Assembly: GCA_033765235.1 (NCBI GenBank)
Contig: JANRIG010000036.1
Span: forward strand, 139,558-203,557
Direction: 5' to 3'
Length of the DNA stretch: 64,000 nucleotides
Origin: Cytophagales bacterium
GTDB taxonomy: Bacteria; Bacteroidota; Bacteroidia; Cytophagales; UBA9547
Part shown: positions 8,098 to 16,966 of the stretch, piece after piece
Position numbering within the stretch: the first letter of the stretch is position 1
Layout: every line of letters starts with the position of its first letter
Program-made: the position numbers and the translations under genes
Notes under the pieces: generated by a model
The model's database searches: none
What the model saw: the letters and a program-made list of their open reading frames with translations, nothing else
Told to the model about the DNA's origin: nothing

Positions 8098-8582
8098 GGC
8101 ACTCTTACTCCATGATATTCAACATTGGCTACATAGTCTTTGCGCAGTGGGTGCCCTACCCAGTCTGCAGGATTGAGTATGCGCCTCAGGTCAGGGTGGT
8201 GGGTAAATACAATGCCGTACATATCATAAGCTTCACGCTCGTGCCACAGTGCAGATTTCCATATATGGCTTATGGTATCTATGCAGGGCAATCGCTCATC
8301 AGTAGGGCGGTCAAGTACTACTTTCACACACAGGCTTTGATGGTGTATTATTGAGTATAAGTTATATGCTATTTCAAACTTGGCTGCCTCAACACCCAAG
8401 TCCAAGGCGGTAATACATGACAGGTAGTCAAAATAAAAGCGGGGGTCGCTGAATAATGTTTCACACACAGCAGTGAGCTGCTCTTTGGGTAATATGATGT
8501 AGGGCATGAGCACATTGCTTTCTACTATTTCAAAAGTATATCCTCGCGAGGACAAATGTGAGGTTATTTCTGTAAAATTCAT
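8091..8582 (-). CDS. nuoC: NADH-quinone oxidoreductase subunit C
   Basis: FDYLSCITALD, WHEREAYDMYGIVFTHHPDLRRIL, GHPLRKDY. Confidence 0.94.
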   Translation of the reverse strand: MNFTEITSHLSSRGYTFEIVESNVLMPYIILPKEQLTAVCETLFSDPRFYFDYLSCITALDLGVEAAKFEIAYNLYSIIHHQSLCVKVVLDRPTDERLPCIDTISHIWKSALWHEREAYDMYGIVFTHHPDLRRILNPADWVGHPLRKDYVANVEYHGVRVPY

Positions 8583-9025
8583 ATTATAGTATGGCTATAC
8601 ATTATTCAAACCGCAAGTTAATAATTAACAGATATAGTGAAATAATGTTTCATCATGCTGTAAACTAATATAATTTTTTTTATCGAGTTGCAAATCTTAA
8701 AGTCATTATTATATTTTTTATTCCTGATAATTGTGCCTTTATTATATACTACATATGTACTTGTTGAAAATAACTTGGTTTCACATTAACCATGTTGGGC
8801 AGTATGTCAGCATTTGCATTTTGAGCTTTATTTATTAATTATACCCATGCGGATGTGCAGGTATTTGTAATAAATTTTCTTCATTCAATTTAGTTACTAA
8901 TGTATTTTAATATTACATCCATTTTGTATTAATAATCAAAGATTTAGTAATATAAATATGCATGGTGGTATATTTTAGCATAATTCATAAATTTATTAAT
9001 AATTTTATAATGAATAATTAGAATT

Positions 9026-10816
9026 ATGCATGTATTTTCAAGATGTATTATACTATTAGCCTGCCTTTTTTTGTATTCAGGCAATATATTTAGTCAGGAT
9101 ACTTATACTGTTGATGGGGCATCCTTCCATAAATACAGACTACTGAATACTAAAGATATACCTGATAGCATTATTATTTCTACTCCTGACTCTATACTCA
9201 AATATGAACCCATATCTATTAATTATGTTGCACCTAACGAACAATACTGGATATATGTCAAAGGGAACAATTCAGAAAAAAAAAATGTATGCTTGGTCAC
9301 TCTAAATGACTTTCCTGTGTATGACATATATCAAGTGGACAAATCAGGTAAAATCCTCAAAGTGGAGAAATTTGGGTATCAGAATAGTTCTAAGGATAAA
9401 AGGTTACAATTTATCTCACATGTATTCGCTATTGACAATACTACTGATGAATATAGAATATTCATCAAGCTCAAAGGCTTAAGATTTGCAACTGGTTTCC
9501 CTTTAGAGTTTACCCATTTGCACAATGCCGTAAATGAAGAGATAAATATGCGCGATATGCTATTCTTTAAGGTGGGTATTGTGCTGTTTACCATAGCCTT
9601 TAGTATGTTGCTTTGGATTAGATTTTGGAGTTGGCAATATTTGTATTTTACGTTGTTTTGCGTTTCATTTTTAGGATATATACAGATATACTCCAAAAAT
9701 ATACATAATTATTTTTCAATGAAAAATTATATTGTTGGCTACGATTATTTCTCATACCCTTATGTGAGTATGATTATATTCATAGTACTTTTTGCTGCTT
9801 CATATATTGAGTTGAGCAGGTATAAATTTTTCTACTATACTTTATTAATAAGTATCACTATCCGTTTGCTGATATACTTATACTCGCTTTATAATCAAGA
9901 AATTATATTTTTTCATCCTGCTATTGACAATATATCTCTGTTCATAGTTTTAATAGCATACATCAAATATATGCATAAAGTAAAAACATCTTGGATTGTA
10001 TTCATCGCACTTTTGATTATGGCCATTACATTTTTATTTCATACATCATCATATTTTGGTTCAGGGTATTACCAATCTTATTTAGTCACTTTTTTTAATA
10101 TTCAAACAGTAGGATTTGTAGTATTTGTACTTTTCAGTATAAGTGTGGTGGCCAAATTTTGGCTCACACAACAGGAAAAAACAACAGCTCTAAACAATAT
10201 TGTAGAAGTGCAAGCAAAAAACAATCGAGAGCTCGAAAGGTTGGTAGAGATTCGTACCAAAACCATAATGGAGCAAGCCCAAGAAATAGCAGACCAGGCT
10301 GACAAAATACAAAAAATGAATGAATTACTCAAGATAGATAATACTAACCTAAAAGTAAATATAGAAGAAGTAAAACATGCCCAAATGATGCATAAAAATG
10401 TCAGTTTTGATGATTTTTTGGTTACCTACCCCGACAATGAGGCATGCCAGGCATACTTACATGAGCTCAAGATTGAGAAAAATATACAATTTGTTTGCAA
10501 CAAATGCGGGAACAGTGCAGGTACATTTATAGCCATCAATTATGGTACACGTTGTACTAAATGCGGTTATTTAGAGCCTGTTACATATAATACAGTCTAT
10601 TATAATGTAAAATTTCCACTTAATAAGGCATTTTACCTTACCTATTTGATAAGCACCAATCAGGTTTATACCCTCGAAAATATCTCAAAAATCATAAATC
10701 TGAGAAAACAAACTTGTTTTACATTTATTAATAAACTTAAAAATATAAAGATAAAAAAACATAAAATGAAACCCGGCGAAGAAGGGTGGATAAACTACAT
10801 ATTTACAGATGATTAA
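9026..10816 (+). CDS. 7TM-DISM membrane sensor with coiled coil and C-terminal IS1595-transposase-like Zn-ribbon/HTH domain
   Basis: Signal peptide, beta-rich extracellular domain, about 7 hydrophobic helices, S-helix-like ELERLVEIRT, then YPDNEACQAYLHELK...CNKC...CTKC...TVYYNVKFPLNKAFYLTYL. Confidence 0.8.
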   Translation: MHVFSRCIILLACLFLYSGNIFSQDTYTVDGASFHKYRLLNTKDIPDSIIISTPDSILKYEPISINYVAPNEQYWIYVKGNNSEKKNVCLVTLNDFPVYDIYQVDKSGKILKVEKFGYQNSSKDKRLQFISHVFAIDNTTDEYRIFIKLKGLRFATGFPLEFTHLHNAVNEEINMRDMLFFKVGIVLFTIAFSMLLWIRFWSWQYLYFTLFCVSFLGYIQIYSKNIHNYFSMKNYIVGYDYFSYPYVSMIIFIVLFAASYIELSRYKFFYYTLLISITIRLLIYLYSLYNQEIIFFHPAIDNISLFIVLIAYIKYMHKVKTSWIVFIALLIMAITFLFHTSSYFGSGYYQSYLVTFFNIQTVGFVVFVLFSISVVAKFWLTQQEKTTALNNIVEVQAKNNRELERLVEIRTKTIMEQAQEIADQADKIQKMNELLKIDNTNLKVNIEEVKHAQMMHKNVSFDDFLVTYPDNEACQAYLHELKIEKNIQFVCNKCGNSAGTFIAINYGTRCTKCGYLEPVTYNTVYYNVKFPLNKAFYLTYLISTNQVYTLENISKIINLRKQTCFTFINKLKNIKIKKHKMKPGEEGWINYIFTDD

Positions 10817-10846: not shown

Positions 10847-10918
10847 TAGTCCGTAGGGGAATCGAACCCCTGTTTCCTCCGTGAAAGGGAGATGTCCTAA
10901 CCCCTAGACGAACGGACC
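10847..10918 (-). tRNA. tRNA-Glu (anticodon TTC), CCA not encoded
   Basis: Minus strand GGTCCGTTCGTCTAGGGGTTAGGACATCTCCC-TTTCA-CGGAGGAAACAGGGGTTCGATTCCCCTACGGACTA; acceptor stem, anticodon arm and T-loop GTTCGATTC are intact. Confidence 0.97.
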
Positions 10919-11068: not shown

Positions 11069-13003
11069 TTACAATATTTTACATTCTATCCTGCGGTTTT
11101 GTTTTCGGTTGGCATCTGTATCATTGGGTGCTACAGGCATTTTATCACCATAGCCTTTGAATTTTACACGACTTTGGTCTATGCCGTTTTCGACCAGGTA
11201 GTCAAATACAGATTCTGCGCGCTTGGTGCTGAGGTTCATATTATTGACAGCCAAGCCTACATTATCAGTGTGCCCGCTTATTTCTACTTTGAGGTCTGCA
11301 TTTTGGTTAAGAAAGTTGATGAGTTTGTCGAGTTCAGCGGTTGATTTTTTTTCTAATTTATACTTGCCTGTTTCAAAAAATATATTGTTGAGCGTAATGG
11401 ATAGGCCTTGCTTGATAGGGTCAAGGTACACATCTAAGTTGAGCGGGTCAAATTTTTGTTCGTTTTCAAAATTAAAAGCATGGCTTTTGTACAGGTATCC
11501 AAGCTTTTGTACATACAATCCGTATTGGGTATTTTCATTGAGCACTATAAGATAAGAGCCATTTACAGGGTCTGATTTTAAGAAACTTTCAGATTTGTTG
11601 GTTTTCAGATTTATGAGTTCTATCACTGCAGATATGGGCTGCTTGGTATCATTGTCATACACAGTGCCTTTGGCGTAGGTACATTTGTCTTTGCAGGACA
11701 CCTCTTGAGGTAGGGCAAACTCATATATGTAATATTTTTCATTGTTGTTTTGAGTTTTAGCTTCAGCAGATATATAAGCCTTTTGGCAATCTGCGGTGAT
11801 GAAAATAGATGATTCTTCTAAGTGTGTGTTGATAGGGTAGCCAAGATTTTGGGGTATAGACCAGTTGCTGAGTGAGTCTTTGTAGCAATAAAATATATCA
11901 AAACTGCCGTATCCCAAATGATAGTCAGATGCAAAGAAAAATGTAGACATAGTAGGGTGAATGAATGGGGCTACCTCTCTGCCGGGTGTGTTTATTAGGT
12001 CGCCAAGATTGAGCGGCGGGCTCCATCTGCCTTCGTGGTCGGCTTGAGCCATCCATATGTCTTCTTCTCCGTATCCGCCAGGGCGCTTGGAACTGAAGTA
12101 TATCGTTTTGCCATCGGGCGATAGAGAGGGCTGAGAGTCCCAAAAGGGAGAGTTTATTTTAGTACCCATATTCACGGGCTTGCTCCATATATTGCCCTCG
12201 TTGTATGATATATATAAGTCGCAGTCGGAGTCGTTGCGAGTAGCACCGCCGCATTTGGTAAATACCAGTACTTTGCCATCGGCAGATATGGTACAGGTAC
12301 CTTCGTTGAGGTTGGCACTGTTTATGTTTTCAGAAATAGGCTGAGCCTCCATCCATTTCCCGTCTTTGTTTTCGGATATGTACATGTCTTCATATTCCAT
12401 ACTTCCTATTTTTTCGCGTACGGTAAATACCATTTTGCTTTGGTCGGCAGTGGTCACCGGGAAATATTGTTTGTTGAATTTATTGATTTCCGGAGGAAGT
12501 CTTTGGGGTTGAATATTTACAGGGTGCTGTATATTTTGCAAAGCAAAGTCGCAAATGAGTATATATCGTTGTGCTTTTTCTAAAAATGGTTTTGGGTCTT
12601 TGTATCCAAACTTTATGTATCGAGTGTAGGCAGCTTTGGCATTGGCATAGGCACCGTCGTGCAGGTATATGTCTGCCAATATTCTGTACACCAATGAGTT
12701 GGTATAGTTTTTGTTAATTTTTAATATTTTTTCGAAATGATATTGCAACAATGGAATGTTGCGCTCAAAGTTTTTATACAACATCCCTAATTGAAAATGA
12801 GCATCTGTAAAATTGGAATCGCGCTCTACAGCTTCTTTAAATTTTTTTATGGAAATATCCCATTTACGGTCTTGCAGGTTTTTGATGCCCTCGTTAAATG
12901 CATTTATAGCTTTTTTGTTTTTAGAGGTCAGGTAGTTGTCTTGTGCCAATCCAATGCAGCACACTGACAACGAAAAATATAGTATATGTATTCTGCGTAA
13001 CAA
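11069..13003 (-). CDS. PorE-like OmpA-family protein (TPR + PD40 beta-propeller + carboxypeptidase-regulatory-like + OmpA C-terminal domain), T9SS/envelope associated
   Basis: TPR helices, repeated WDSQPSLSPDG/EVAPFIHP PD40 motifs, C-terminal NNIFFETGK...ISGHTDN...LSTKRAESV...NRRIE; a TAATTTTG -7 element lies at 13028-13035. Confidence 0.85.
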   Translation of the reverse strand: MLRRIHILYFSLSVCCIGLAQDNYLTSKNKKAINAFNEGIKNLQDRKWDISIKKFKEAVERDSNFTDAHFQLGMLYKNFERNIPLLQYHFEKILKINKNYTNSLVYRILADIYLHDGAYANAKAAYTRYIKFGYKDPKPFLEKAQRYILICDFALQNIQHPVNIQPQRLPPEINKFNKQYFPVTTADQSKMVFTVREKIGSMEYEDMYISENKDGKWMEAQPISENINSANLNEGTCTISADGKVLVFTKCGGATRNDSDCDLYISYNEGNIWSKPVNMGTKINSPFWDSQPSLSPDGKTIYFSSKRPGGYGEEDIWMAQADHEGRWSPPLNLGDLINTPGREVAPFIHPTMSTFFFASDYHLGYGSFDIFYCYKDSLSNWSIPQNLGYPINTHLEESSIFITADCQKAYISAEAKTQNNNEKYYIYEFALPQEVSCKDKCTYAKGTVYDNDTKQPISAVIELINLKTNKSESFLKSDPVNGSYLIVLNENTQYGLYVQKLGYLYKSHAFNFENEQKFDPLNLDVYLDPIKQGLSITLNNIFFETGKYKLEKKSTAELDKLINFLNQNADLKVEISGHTDNVGLAVNNMNLSTKRAESVFDYLVENGIDQSRVKFKGYGDKMPVAPNDTDANRKQNRRIECKIL

Positions 13004-13180
13004 ATTGAATTATTATCAATATTTTCCCAAAATTAATTTATTATTTGACAAATAATAAATCAAACAACTCTTGAGGCTATTTTTATTCATCATATATCTA
13101 CAATATGCAATAAATATGAGGCTATGTAAAATGTATTTCGTTTTTTTGCAAGTTGATTTTTAGCTTATTATTACTATTTT

Positions 13181-14566
13181 ATGAAAATATTAAAATTCTC
13201 TGAATCATCATTCAAAGATGCACAGTGTATAGACAAAGTATTAACTATAATAAGAGGTAATGCAGCCAACCATACTCATGTGGTGGTGGTATGCCCTACC
13301 ATAGCCAATACAGGTCATAGACTGGCCGAGATGAGCAGCCTCACCAAAGAGTCTAAAGAAGGATACAAAGACTTGCTCAAATCTATTGAAGATGAGCATT
13401 TTGGTATTGCCAAGCATTTCATAGACGTGAAAAGGCAAGCCAAAGTCATAGCCAACCTCAAAATGATGCTCAATGAGCTTGAAGAAATACTATATGGCGT
13501 GTATCTGCTTTGGGAGCTTTCGCCTCGTACCCTTGACCATATTCATGGATTTGGCACCCAACTTACTTCTTACCTGCTCAGTGAATGTATCAAAGAAACC
13601 GGCACAGACTCTGTGTTGCTCGACAGCAAAACATTTATTAAGACCAATGACAGGTATGGTCATGCTCAAATATTAGAAGACGAAAGCGATAAAATCATAT
13701 ACTCAATTTTCAAAGATACCAAGCCCGTCACGGTGGTTTCTGGTGGAGTAGGCAGCACCCTCAAGGGTGAGTCTACAGTTTTGGGCAAGTCCGGAGTAAG
13801 CTACACAGCTTCTTATTTGGCTGCTACACTCAAGTGTGAAATGCTGGAAGTATATACCACCCGAGACGGTATTTATAACTCAGACAAACGATGGGTGCAC
13901 ACTGCATACAGCCTCCCTCATCTTACTTATAACGAAGCTATGGAAATGGCCAACTTTGATATGGACGTAATATATCCACCGGCTTTTGAGCCTGCATTCA
14001 GCGAAAAAATTCCTGTGCTCATTCTCAATCTTTTCAACCCTGATTTCAAAGGCACACTTATCAATGACAAACCTGCCCATGACAAAAACCCAATAAAATG
14101 TACCTCAGCTATTGCACGTGTGAGCTTGCTCACCATACAAGGGGCAGGTATGATAGGGGTAGCTGGAGTAGCAGCACGTTTTTTTGCTACTTTGGCCAAT
14201 ATGAATGTCAGCATAGTGTTCATCACCCAATCATCATCTGAGCAGTCTATCACAGTAGCCATTGCATCTGAGCAGGCTATGGCAGCAAAGCAAATGTTGG
14301 ATAATGAATTTGAAATTGAAATAAAAAATTATAAGTTGCAAAACATAACTATTAAGCCTGATATGGCTATTGTGGCCATCATAGGTGAAAACATGAAAAA
14401 CTCACCCGGCATAGCCGGAAAAATATTCACTGCCATTGGCCATCAAAATATCAACATTGCTGCCATAGCACAAGGTTCATCCGAACTCAATATATCTATA
14501 GTAGTAGAAAGTGGTCATTTGCAAAAAGTATTAAATACAATACAAACCCATTTCTTTGCATCATAG
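13181..14566 (+). CDS. Aspartokinase-like protein (ThrA-type kinase domain + 2 ACT domains, no homoserine dehydrogenase) with degenerate catalytic motifs
   Basis: Collinear with the ThrA N-terminal half (ELSPRTLD, EAMEMA, GMIGVAG, ITQSSSEQSI, IAQGSSELNIS), but KFGG is KFSE and GRGGSD is GKSGVS. Confidence 0.85.
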   Translation: MKILKFSESSFKDAQCIDKVLTIIRGNAANHTHVVVVCPTIANTGHRLAEMSSLTKESKEGYKDLLKSIEDEHFGIAKHFIDVKRQAKVIANLKMMLNELEEILYGVYLLWELSPRTLDHIHGFGTQLTSYLLSECIKETGTDSVLLDSKTFIKTNDRYGHAQILEDESDKIIYSIFKDTKPVTVVSGGVGSTLKGESTVLGKSGVSYTASYLAATLKCEMLEVYTTRDGIYNSDKRWVHTAYSLPHLTYNEAMEMANFDMDVIYPPAFEPAFSEKIPVLILNLFNPDFKGTLINDKPAHDKNPIKCTSAIARVSLLTIQGAGMIGVAGVAARFFATLANMNVSIVFITQSSSEQSITVAIASEQAMAAKQMLDNEFEIEIKNYKLQNITIKPDMAIVAIIGENMKNSPGIAGKIFTAIGHQNINIAAIAQGSSELNISIVVESGHLQKVLNTIQTHFFAS

Positions 14567-14632: not shown

Positions 14633-15865
14633 ATGCCCCAAATTAACGCTTACGATATAACCAAAATAAGAAATGACTTCCCGGTACTCAACCAAAAAGT
14701 GCATGACAAGCCATTAATATATCTCGACAATGCAGCTACTACCCAAAAGCCACAGAGTGTGATAAATGCCATAACACAATATTATGAAACTATCAATGCC
14801 AACATACACAGAGGCTTACACACACTGGCAGATAAGGCTACATGGCAATTTGAAAACTCACGAAGTGCGCTCGCAAAGTTTATCAATGCTCAAGCACCCG
14901 AGCAAGTAATATTTACCAGAGGCGTCACAGAAGCCATCAATTTGGTGGCACGCTCCTATGGAGCCAAATTTTTAAAAGCTGGAGACGAAGTATTGATTTC
15001 TACCCTTGAGCACCACTCCAATATAGTACCTTGGCAATTGATATGTGATGAAAAAGGTGCAATACTCAAAATTATCCCTATCAGTGATGATGGTGAAATA
15101 ATATATGAAGAATATATAAAATTACTTTCAGAAAAAGTAAAAATAGTATCTATAGTACATGTATCCAATGCTTTGGGAATAGTAAACCCTGTAAATCAAA
15201 TGATACAAGATGCCCATAAGTATGGTGCAGTGGTGTTAGTAGATGGTGCCCAAGCAGCATCACATTTACCTATAGATGTGCAAACCTTAGATGCAGACTT
15301 TTATGCACTTTCGGCGCATAAATTTTACGGACCTACAGGCATAGGAGCACTCTATGGCAAGCATGACATACTAGACAGCATGAACCCATACATGGGAGGT
15401 GGCGAAATGATAAAAGAAGTGACATTTGCCGGCACCACCTACAACGAACTGCCTTACAAATTTGAAGCAGGCACTCCAAATATTGCCGATACCATAGCTA
15501 TGAGTCATGCATTAGACTATATAACCAAAATAGGTAAAGGCAACATAGCCTCCCACGAAGATGCCTTATTGCACTACGCTACCGGCAAACTCTTAGAAAT
15601 ACCTAATCTACAAATATTTGGAAATGTAAATGATAAAGTAAGTGTAATTTCGTTTTTGGTAAAAGGCATTCACCCTCAAGACATGGGTATCATACTCGAT
15701 AGTGAGGGAGTAGCTGTGCGCACAGGGCACCACTGTACCCAGCCACTCATGGCACGCTTAGGCATATCAGGTACTGTAAGAGCATCATTTGCCATGTACA
15801 ATACTTTTGAGGAAATAGATACATTAGTCTTTGGTATTCACAAAGCTGTAAAGATGCTGCAATGA
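14633..15865 (+). CDS. sufS: SufS-type cysteine desulfurase
   Basis: YLDNAATTQKP, FTRGVTEAIN, LEHHSNIVPWQ, SAHKFYGPTG (PLP Lys), RTGHHC (catalytic Cys). Confidence 0.95.
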   Translation: MPQINAYDITKIRNDFPVLNQKVHDKPLIYLDNAATTQKPQSVINAITQYYETINANIHRGLHTLADKATWQFENSRSALAKFINAQAPEQVIFTRGVTEAINLVARSYGAKFLKAGDEVLISTLEHHSNIVPWQLICDEKGAILKIIPISDDGEIIYEEYIKLLSEKVKIVSIVHVSNALGIVNPVNQMIQDAHKYGAVVLVDGAQAASHLPIDVQTLDADFYALSAHKFYGPTGIGALYGKHDILDSMNPYMGGGEMIKEVTFAGTTYNELPYKFEAGTPNIADTIAMSHALDYITKIGKGNIASHEDALLHYATGKLLEIPNLQIFGNVNDKVSVISFLVKGIHPQDMGIILDSEGVAVRTGHHCTQPLMARLGISGTVRASFAMYNTFEEIDTLVFGIHKAVKMLQ

Positions 15866-16012: not shown

Positions 16013-16966
16013 ATGAACATAAAAATCCCGCTTTATATTATTTTGTTATTAATCATAAATATACAAGTATTTGCCCAAAACCCCAATCGTACACAACTTA
16101 GATTTAAGCAAGACCATGACCGCGCCGCCAAAAAATCTACTATAAAACGAGACTTTACGCCCATAGACAAGGACACAGACAAAGACGGAGTGTTAGATAT
16201 AAATGACAAATGTCCGGGTTTGGGAATAAAAGGTCAAGTAACTCCATTTGGTTGTCCAAACGATAGCGACTTTGATGGAATATATGACTCAGAAGATGCC
16301 TGTGTAAATGACCCCGGCCCGCGCGAAAACCACGGATGCCCTTGGGCAGATACAGACGGCGACGGGGTGCTGGACAAAGATGATGAGTGTATTACCGTGA
16401 AAGGACTTCCTGATTTTCACGGATGCCCCGATACAGATAGCGATGGCATACCCGACTTGCTCGACAACTGTCCCAAACAAGCCGGTACTTGGGAGCTCAA
16501 AGGTTGTCCCCCGCTGGATAGCGACAATGATGGAGTGCCTGACTCAGAAGATATATGCCCCAAAACAGCAGGCATACCGGAGCTTAGAGGATGCCCACCT
16601 CTAAAACCTGAAGAAAAAGAAGCTCTCAAACGCGCCTTTGACAATTTGCTCTTTGAAACAGGGAGCGATGTCATTGTAGAATCTTCTTTCCCATCTCTCA
16701 ACGATTTAGCCAAAATATTGATAAATAACCCGATTACAAAACTTCGCCTCGAAGGCCACACCGATGATGTGGGCGATGATGACAGCAACATGATACTGTC
16801 TCGCAAACGTGCAGCTGCAGTAGAGAGATACTTAGAAGATAAAAGTGTGCAAAATACCCGTATCACCTCCGAAGGATTTGGTGAAACTCGTCCTAAATTG
16901 CCAAACGATACAGATGGCAACCGAAAAGTAAACCGTAGAGTAGAAATGATACTCACCTACGAATAA
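16013..16966 (+). CDS. OmpA-family protein with thrombospondin type-3 (Ca-binding) repeats
   Basis: Six DxDxDG(V/I)xDxxDxCP-type repeats followed by LLFETGS...EGHTDD...LSRKRAAAV...NRRVE. Confidence 0.9.
   Translation: MNIKIPLYIILLLIINIQVFAQNPNRTQLRFKQDHDRAAKKSTIKRDFTPIDKDTDKDGVLDINDKCPGLGIKGQVTPFGCPNDSDFDGIYDSEDACVNDPGPRENHGCPWADTDGDGVLDKDDECITVKGLPDFHGCPDTDSDGIPDLLDNCPKQAGTWELKGCPPLDSDNDGVPDSEDICPKTAGIPELRGCPPLKPEEKEALKRAFDNLLFETGSDVIVESSFPSLNDLAKILINNPITKLRLEGHTDDVGDDDSNMILSRKRAAAVERYLEDKSVQNTRITSEGFGETRPKLPNDTDGNRKVNRRVEMILTYE

Follow-up and report, generated by a model that had tools for sequence, protein, structure and literature searches.

The gene at positions 13,181–14,566 on the forward strand of a 64,000-nucleotide stretch of DNA from a Cytophagales bacterium (GenBank assembly GCA_033765235.1, contig JANRIG010000036.1, positions 139,558 to 203,557; hereafter the window) encodes a 461-amino acid (aa) relative of ThrA that has no homoserine dehydrogenase (HSDH) domain and that, from its residue pattern, is strongly indicated to be non-catalytic for aspartate phosphorylation. 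In our judgement it is reasonably likely to be a ThrA-derived pseudo-aspartokinase that has been kept as a regulator, passing a signal from its ACT domains to a partner protein, and its function is probably a threonine-binding regulatory role. Full-text literature searches found no published pseudo-aspartokinase. The initial annotation of this stretch, made from the sequence alone, had proposed an inactive aspartokinase (AK) with intact ACT domains; an open reading frame check returned the same 461 codons that it had reported, with no frameshift and no internal stop. The features of the gene and its surroundings are listed in Table 1.

Pfam assigned to the protein an AA_kinase domain (97.8 bits) and two ACT_9 domains (123 bits), and the top NCBIfam match was to ThrA (PRK09436, 417 bits) over model positions 1–461 of 819, the N-terminal half. 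In an alignment with canonical ThrA, the C-terminus of the protein lies at the point where ThrA runs on into the NAD-binding motif of its HSDH, in agreement with the initial annotation. Every aspartokinase equivalog cut-off was missed (PRK09436, 417 against 726; PRK06291, 374 against 528; TIGR00656, 278 against 402), and the only NCBIfam cut-off reached was that of TIGR00657, a broad subfamily_domain model (283 against 209). The closest solved structure by sequence was the threonine-sensitive AK of M. jannaschii (MjAK; PDB 3c1m, HMMER E-value 3e-77).

Catalytic positions were assessed in the numbering of Escherichia coli LysC, transferred by profile alignment to the structure 2j0w. The kinase-motif changes listed initially were all visible in the HMMER alignment to 3c1m and could be mapped onto LysC, with KFSESS, VCP, YTTRDG and FDMDV in the window protein replacing KFGG(T/S)S, VSA, (W)TDVDG and FGAKV. 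In the phosphate and nucleotide loops, G10 is replaced by S7 of the window protein, G11 by E8, S39 by P39, D222 by T227 and K257 by D262. At the substrate-contact and catalytic positions, A40 is replaced by T40, T45 by G45, E119 by T126, F184 by G189, R198 by K203, S201 by V206 and D202 by S207, while the catalytic K8 is kept (K5). In LysC, E119 and R198 form salt bridges to the substrate α-amino group and α-carboxylate, respectively, and A40, T45, F184 and S201 provide contacts (PMC5481828); PMC4142519, citing Marco-Marin 2003, gives K8 and D202 roles in AK catalysis. D202 is Asp in 23 of 23 canonical sequences, Ser in the window protein and Ser, Thr, Val or Ala in all 19 of the other analysed members of a clade of HSDH-less relatives, described below, and both E119 and D202 are absent from all 20 members (the window protein and these 19). 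With residues for catalysis and for aspartate binding gone, the inactivity claimed at the outset finds strong support. Since the defining catalytic features that were tested were not found, the protein falls outside the active aspartokinase and ThrA families.

The losses are unevenly spread between the two halves of the protein. A column was taken as canonical-invariant if at least 90% conserved among the 23 canonical sequences. The window protein keeps 32 of 37 such columns in the ACT domains, which bears out the near-consensus ACT motifs noted initially, against 46 of 78 in the kinase domain (Fisher P = 0.003). For the clade as a whole the values are 33 of 37 and 39 of 78 (Fisher P = 3e-5), the remaining kinase columns being either switched (9) or variable (30). 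Eight columns of the aspartate pocket and catalytic Asp had a clade conservation of 0.52, compared with 0.80 for the other canonical-invariant kinase columns (permutation P = 0.0003). A40, T45, F184 and T195 were not re-fixed in the clade, where each position carries 3–6 different residues (five or six at T45, F184 and T195). Because the pocket columns vary in this way, the pattern points to loss of substrate binding and not to a newly fixed pocket. The window copy is more degenerate than the clade around it: the other members keep G10, S39 and T221–D222, but not G11 or K257, whereas the window copy has private losses of G10, S39 and D222, together with charge reversals at G11 (to Glu) and K257 (to Asp). 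Thus, the window protein is hard to reconcile with ATP chemistry and, as G10, S39 and D222 have gone as well, its function cannot depend on that chemistry.

The aspartokinase fold and the two ACT domains are nevertheless predicted to be intact. An AlphaFold2 model built with the clade alignment had a mean predicted local distance difference test score of 89.2 and a predicted template modelling (TM) score of 0.85, and Foldseek matched it to MjAK structures 3c1m and 3c1n with TM scores of 0.81–0.89, the best match being the threonine-bound 3c1n. The glutamines of the two ACT motifs, Q350 (ITQSSSE) and Q431 (IAQGSSE), are invariant across both the clade and the canonical sequences. We take the two QxSSE motifs to correspond to Gln443 and Gln524 of At AK-HSDH. 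The threonine sites of AK-HSDH are two in number and centred on these glutamines (bioRxiv 10.1101/2021.02.09.430557), and as both motifs are kept, the ACT domains of the window protein would be expected to bind threonine.

The region most conserved within the clade lies in the kinase half, at aa 61–120, where column conservation is 0.78–0.90, compared with 0.47–0.67 in canonical enzymes. This stretch falls within the predicted helices H62-80, H83-110 and H115-139. Its clade-invariant residues include W111, H120, F80, K78, D82 and K84, among others, with W111, H120 and F80 being non-canonical, and the window protein matches the clade consensus at 65–95% over the stretch. On this pattern of conservation, the helices are a candidate for a new interaction surface.

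The remnant is kept under strong long-term purifying selection as a folded AK-ACT protein, and this applies to both halves. The ratio of non-synonymous to synonymous substitution rates (dN/dS) was 0.058 and 0.108 for the closest pairs (G008–G016 and G004–G018, respectively; G numbers denote genomes, G000 being that of the window), with an overall range of 0.06–0.2. When the closest pairs were analysed by part, values were 0.06–0.12 for the degenerate kinase half and 0.05–0.09 for the ACT half. The orthologues share the substitutions, and dN/dS is not near 1, the value which the initial annotation had associated with a young pseudogene. Over genome pairs the dN of the pseudo-kinase was a constant 2.5–2.8 times that of the real AK, pairs involving G000 falling within the same range, and the terminal branch of G000 is the longest in housekeeping markers too (0.47). 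Thus, the window copy is not specially relaxed, and a relaxation of selection peculiar to it was rejected. In simulations of neutral substitution based on the gene's own sequence and composition, stop-free runs made up 0.3% at 80% aa identity and none were obtained at 70%; the window protein is intact, although its identity to the closest relatives is down to about 50%.

A protein database search recovered about 22 clusters of 455–467 aa, 46–54% identical to the window protein and all without HSDH, beneath which came canonical ThrA and AK proteins at 44% identity or less. A related-locus search of genome contigs returned canonical ThrA loci only, likewise at most 44% identical. Besides about 15 metagenomic clusters, the clade comprises 7 genomes from 4 genera, all within a single Cytophagales family, and databases label every member either 'aspartate kinase' or 'aspartokinase/homoserine dehydrogenase 1'. 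The relatives share KFGQST, xYG(V/L)K for SFGER, LGKSGS(S/T) for LGRGGSD, YTDRDG for WTDVDG and a variable FGxxx for FGAKV. In a maximum-likelihood tree the ∼460-aa HSDH-less proteins were monophyletic (100/100, stem 0.57), and the window protein formed the longest terminal branch of the clade (0.95); the gene tree leaves the sister group of the clade, including a sister relation to the family's ThrA, without resolution.

The origin of the gene was traced by a survey of 22 representative genomes of the GTDB family of G000. ThrA-type matches were present in 13 of the 15 genomes without the truncated form, with open frames of 818–847 aa where the assembly allows (the frames end at contig edges in G002, G007, G012, G017 and G019); the other two, G006 and G015, are fragmented assemblies and gave no strong ThrA-type match. 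Most ThrA-type genomes also have a LysC-type aspartokinase of ∼445 aa. The truncated form and ThrA are mutually exclusive, none of the 22 genomes having both, and the window protein is 40–44% identical to the family's own ThrA. In G000, G008 and G014 a PorE-like gene adjoins the truncated gene or lies close to it, as it does with ThrA in G003 and G001, and it is also present at loci L006 and L008. In a concatenated tree of thrC, hom and asd, a branch with 100/100 support set the 7 truncated-form genomes apart from the others, consistent with a single origin. Mutual exclusion, PorE-like synteny and this species-tree pattern make the gene an in-situ descendant of ThrA, and it is best read as a ThrA orthologue in a lineage from which ThrA itself has gone, not as the extra paralogue of an active enzyme that the initial annotation had supposed.

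The rest of the threonine pathway is in place. A standalone HSDH of about 400–430 aa, thrC and asd were found in all 14 family genomes tested, and G000 has thrB (C18:14571-15506) and, as its sole HSDH, a standalone 415-aa Hom on contig C32 (C32:743-1990); loss of the threonine pathway was thus rejected as an explanation. An intact aspartokinase elsewhere in the genome, presumed in the initial annotation, was identified in G000 as an enzyme of the PRK09181 type (C31:30548-31927; 652 bits, cut-off 536). Orthologues of it, 76–80% identical, were recovered from 6 of the 7 truncated-form genomes, whereas the 7 ThrA genomes tested gave none (Fisher P = 0.005, a value that overstates the support because the co-occurrence amounts to one evolutionary event). 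Elsewhere in the order, the PRK09181-type AK is found both with a full ThrA (G034) and without any ThrA-like gene (G027). In this lineage, then, ThrA and the LysC-type enzyme have been replaced by a PRK09181-type kinase and a ThrA remnant, and with that kinase, asd, hom, thrB and thrC all present, the pathway can do without catalysis by the pseudo-kinase.

Some irregularities were seen among these pathway genes. The PRK09181-type gene of G016, a congener of G008, lies on a 3-kb contig, and that of G014 (C73:7776-9124) is split into a 392-aa frame and a 72-aa piece with a stop between them, possibly through a frameshift, pseudogene formation or an assembly error. G000 has two strong matches to the C-domain of aspartate-semialdehyde dehydrogenase (162–163 bits; C8:5-502 and C25:83014-83541), one of them at a contig edge, so that either asd has been duplicated or the assembly holds the same gene twice.

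In the scenario that we favour, ThrA would have lost its whole HSDH domain in the ancestor of the four genera, and in the same lineage the residues for aspartate binding and phosphoryl transfer would also have been lost; with the LysC-type enzyme absent, the pathway would be carried by the PRK09181-type AK and standalone Hom, Asd, ThrB and ThrC. Effector binding would be retained by the two ACT domains, the likeliest amino-acid ligand being threonine, by analogy with ThrA and MjAK, and the effector signal would be handed to a partner through protein–protein contact. This contact may be made by the hyper-conserved three-helix surface at aa 61–120 of the dead kinase domain, by ACT-mediated oligomerization, or by both, and candidate partners are the PRK09181-type aspartokinase, the standalone HSDH or another enzyme. 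Loss of catalytic residues, a fold predicted to be intact and long-term purifying selection, the hallmarks of a pseudoenzyme, are all found in this protein.

A number of observations weigh against this reading. Position 119 is aliphatic (V, L or I) in the 19 other clade members and position 198 stays basic (K or R), so that the pattern at 119, 198 and 202 could reflect a re-tuned pocket. K8, G10, S39, T221, D222 and G225 are invariant or nearly so in the same 19 proteins, the mean clade conservation of nine phosphate/nucleotide-side columns is 0.84, and the other members may, to judge by these residues, still bind nucleotide or even catalyse something. In G008 (97% complete, 220 contigs; pseudo-kinase at C1:38556-39920), a canonical aspartokinase of any type was not detected, which either stems from an assembly gap or leaves the 'dead' protein as the sole AK-like one in this genome; if the absence is real, the clade protein would have to be the only AK of G008. 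Families f6, f7, f14 and f19 have the PRK09181-type AK but not the pseudo-kinase, which weakens the case for that enzyme as an obligate partner. Around P0003, P0018, P0007 and 10 genome regions no tight conserved operon partner was found, CcmF-like and PorE-like genes recurring only loosely near the clade genes. Finally, a search of public sequencing runs, made for evidence of expression, found none containing the sequence of the gene.

The partner in the favoured scenario can be specified further by making the protein a trans-acting regulatory subunit of the PRK09181-type AK, the two forming an ACT heterodimer that gives threonine feedback, although we regard this version as doubtful. Class I AKs dimerize through their ACT domains and class II AKs use a separate ACT subunit, the β subunit of the α2β2 enzymes, which is non-catalytic, has two ACT domains, binds threonine or lysine and regulates its catalytic partner (PMC4142519). 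The high conservation of the ACT half and the presence of the PRK09181-type AK in 6 of 7 truncated-form genomes but in none of the ThrA genomes tested would suit a heterodimer. The ACT regions also match the class II β subunits of Corynebacterium glutamicum (3aaw/3ab2) and Mycobacterium tuberculosis (3s1t/4go5), with E-values of 1e-5 to 1e-7. Those subunits, however, arise from an internal start of the same gene and have no kinase domain, whereas the pseudo-kinase is encoded by a separate gene and its dead kinase domain is under selection. The co-occurrence is a single ancestral event, the PRK09181-type AK of G034 and G027 needs no such partner, and the two proteins are only ∼25% identical and their genes unlinked. 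Furthermore, the conservation of the whole dead kinase domain, especially of helices 61–120, would be left unexplained by ACT pairing.

It is improbable, in our estimate, that the clade is a re-specified kinase which phosphorylates a substrate other than aspartate, for example a carboxylate without an α-amino group such as malate, with ACT feedback kept. We retained this explanation because E119 substitutions can re-target LysC: with E119G, A, S or C the E. coli enzyme becomes a malate kinase and no longer acts on aspartate (PMC5481828). The consistently aliphatic residue at 119 and basic residue at 198, the near-invariance of K8, G10, S39, T221 and D222 outside the window copy, the low dN/dS of the kinase half (0.06–0.12) and the lack of any other detectable aspartokinase in G008 would all fit such an activity. 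The engineered LysC E119S/V115A malate kinase (PMC5481828) resembles the clade in that the Glu119 carboxylate is gone, but it is active, with D202, R198, the Gly loop and the ATP site all in place, whereas D202 is missing from 20 of 20 clade members, K257 is variable and the window copy is also without the ATP-site residues. The contacts A40, T45, F184 and T195 are not re-fixed, the pocket is less conserved than the other canonical-invariant kinase columns (0.52 against 0.80, as above), and constraint on the kinase half peaks on helices 61–120, not at the active site. The window copy, having lost G10, G11, S39, D222 and K257, does not differ from the others in relative evolutionary rate, and in the neighbourhoods examined no companion enzymes for a new phospho-product were linked to the gene.

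The possibility that the dead kinase domain pairs with a short ArgA-like GNAT protein of ∼200 aa, giving a two-polypeptide analogue of N-acetylglutamate synthase with an allosteric role outside the threonine branch, seems to us highly unlikely. Helices 61–120 would then be a docking surface, and the two genes would since have become separated in G000. The lead came from a weak GNAT match of ∼200 aa (F13; PRK07757-like, E-value 0.004) encoded directly 3′ of the pseudo-kinase in G008, G016, G009 and the P0003 genome; with G008 and G016 counted as one, these make three lineages of the clade. The protein is well conserved, with a C-terminal Cys cluster (Table 1). It is found, however, in 20 of the 22 family genomes, ThrA-type genomes included, the other two being fragmented assemblies, so that its co-occurrence with the pseudo-kinase was rejected as a sign of a clade-specific partner. 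An argC-like match is located ∼2 kb from it in G005 and G010, and on this account F13 is probably a short ArgA-like acyltransferase of arginine synthesis.

We give almost no credence to a slowly decaying, non-functional ThrA relic that has not yet been disrupted, since, although the non-synonymous rate is 2.5–2.8 times that of the real AK, the window branch is the longest in the clade (0.95) with private losses of G10, S39 and D222, and no public run holding the sequence was found, all of the roughly 22 clade sequences are intact at 455–467 aa, dN/dS is 0.06–0.2, hardly any frame stays free of stops when neutral evolution is simulated to the divergence seen here, the clade-specific motifs are invariant and kept in the window copy, and the long branch of G000 is genome-wide.

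The pseudo-kinase that we favour as a regulator was also compared with known systems. MjAK (PDB 2hmf, 3c1m, 3c1n) is the closest in sequence and fold, being monofunctional, of the same length and with the same AK and two-ACT layout, but it is active and has all the catalytic and substrate residues that the pseudo-kinase is without. ThrA (PRK09436) is the best family match and shares the AK and two-ACT layout, the syntenic locus and both QxSSE motifs; the pseudo-kinase differs from it in having no HSDH, E119, R198, D202, G10–G11 loop, D222 or K257, in its new conserved helical surface, and in a score well under 726. There are precedents for an enzyme fold that is kept without catalysis for amino-acid binding and controls another catalytic unit. 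HisZ is a dead HisRS paralogue that regulates HisG, and the N-acetylglutamate synthase ArgA, which is of the same fold as the pseudo-kinase, carries a non-catalytic amino-acid-kinase domain. The pseudo-kinase is distinguished from these by its ThrA ancestry and by being a separate gene with a whole dead kinase domain and no fused partner.

Since databases annotate the clade members as aspartokinases, metabolic reconstructions of these Cytophagales would wrongly count the protein as an enzyme. The gene also offers a clean natural case in which a central feedback-regulated biosynthetic enzyme has become a pseudoenzyme, datable to one branch; the switch coincides with a change of the pathway kinase, after which active-site constraint was lost, the ACT domains were kept and a new conserved surface was gained. 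If a ligand and a partner were found, this would show how allosteric sensing modules can be uncoupled from catalysis and put to new use, and would add an amino-acid-kinase-fold protein to the few bacterial pseudoenzyme regulators of metabolism, such as HisZ.

Table 1. Coordinates of the pseudo-aspartokinase gene, its parts and its surroundings in the window, and of the F13 GNAT genes at other loci
Feature	Location	Strand	Evidence
Pseudo-aspartokinase gene, 461 aa, AK-ACT, ThrA-derived, without HSDH domain	13181..14566	+	
Degenerate amino-acid-kinase domain, aa 1-295	13181..14065	+	
Clade-specific hyper-conserved helical stretch, aa 61-120, ...DVKRQAKVIANLKMMLNELEEILYGVYLLWELSPRTLDH	13361..13540	+	Column conservation, predicted secondary structure
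ACT1, about aa 305-380, GAGMIGVAG and ITQSSSEQSI (Q350)	14093..14320	+	Pfam ACT_9, secondary structure
ACT2, about aa 386-461, IIGENMKNSPGIAGKIF and IAQGSSELNIS (Q431)	14336..14563	+	Pfam ACT_9 (residues 398-458), secondary structure
AT-rich intergenic region 5′ of the pseudo-kinase gene, presumed promoter	13004..13180	.	Sequence
Divergent TPR-PD40-OmpA (PorE-like) gene, family F1, synteny anchor with sister-genus ThrA loci	11069..13003	-	
F13 GNAT, well conserved, C-terminal Cys cluster CxxC...CxC	L113 (G008) 11074-11676		
F13 GNAT, as above	L111 (G009) 8571-9053		
F13 GNAT, as above	L006 7486-8130		
F13 GNAT, as above	G000 C38:3645-4190		

The gene neighbourhood is as initially described, with the PorE-like gene on the opposite strand and sufS downstream. 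The latter encodes a SufS-type cysteine desulfurase (14,633–15,865, forward strand) and starts 66 bp 3′ of the pseudo-kinase gene, an adjacency found in the window only and not in the other clade genomes examined. It is followed by genes for an OmpA-family protein, an MltG-like protein and, on the opposite strand, a CysN-like GTPase, with no further suf genes. The OmpA-family protein (16,013–16,966, forward strand) has multiple thrombospondin-type-3-like, Asp-rich calcium-binding repeats (DxDxDGxxDxxD). No riboswitch or leader was found upstream of the pseudo-kinase gene, as an Rfam scan of the whole window at gathering thresholds gave one tRNA only. This tRNA gene (RF00005, 59.9 bits; 10,847–10,918, reverse strand) lies between the PorE-like gene and a gene for a 596-aa membrane protein (9,026–10,816, forward strand), which has a signal peptide, a multi-pass membrane region, a coiled coil and a C-terminal zinc-ribbon-like module (CNKC...CTKC).

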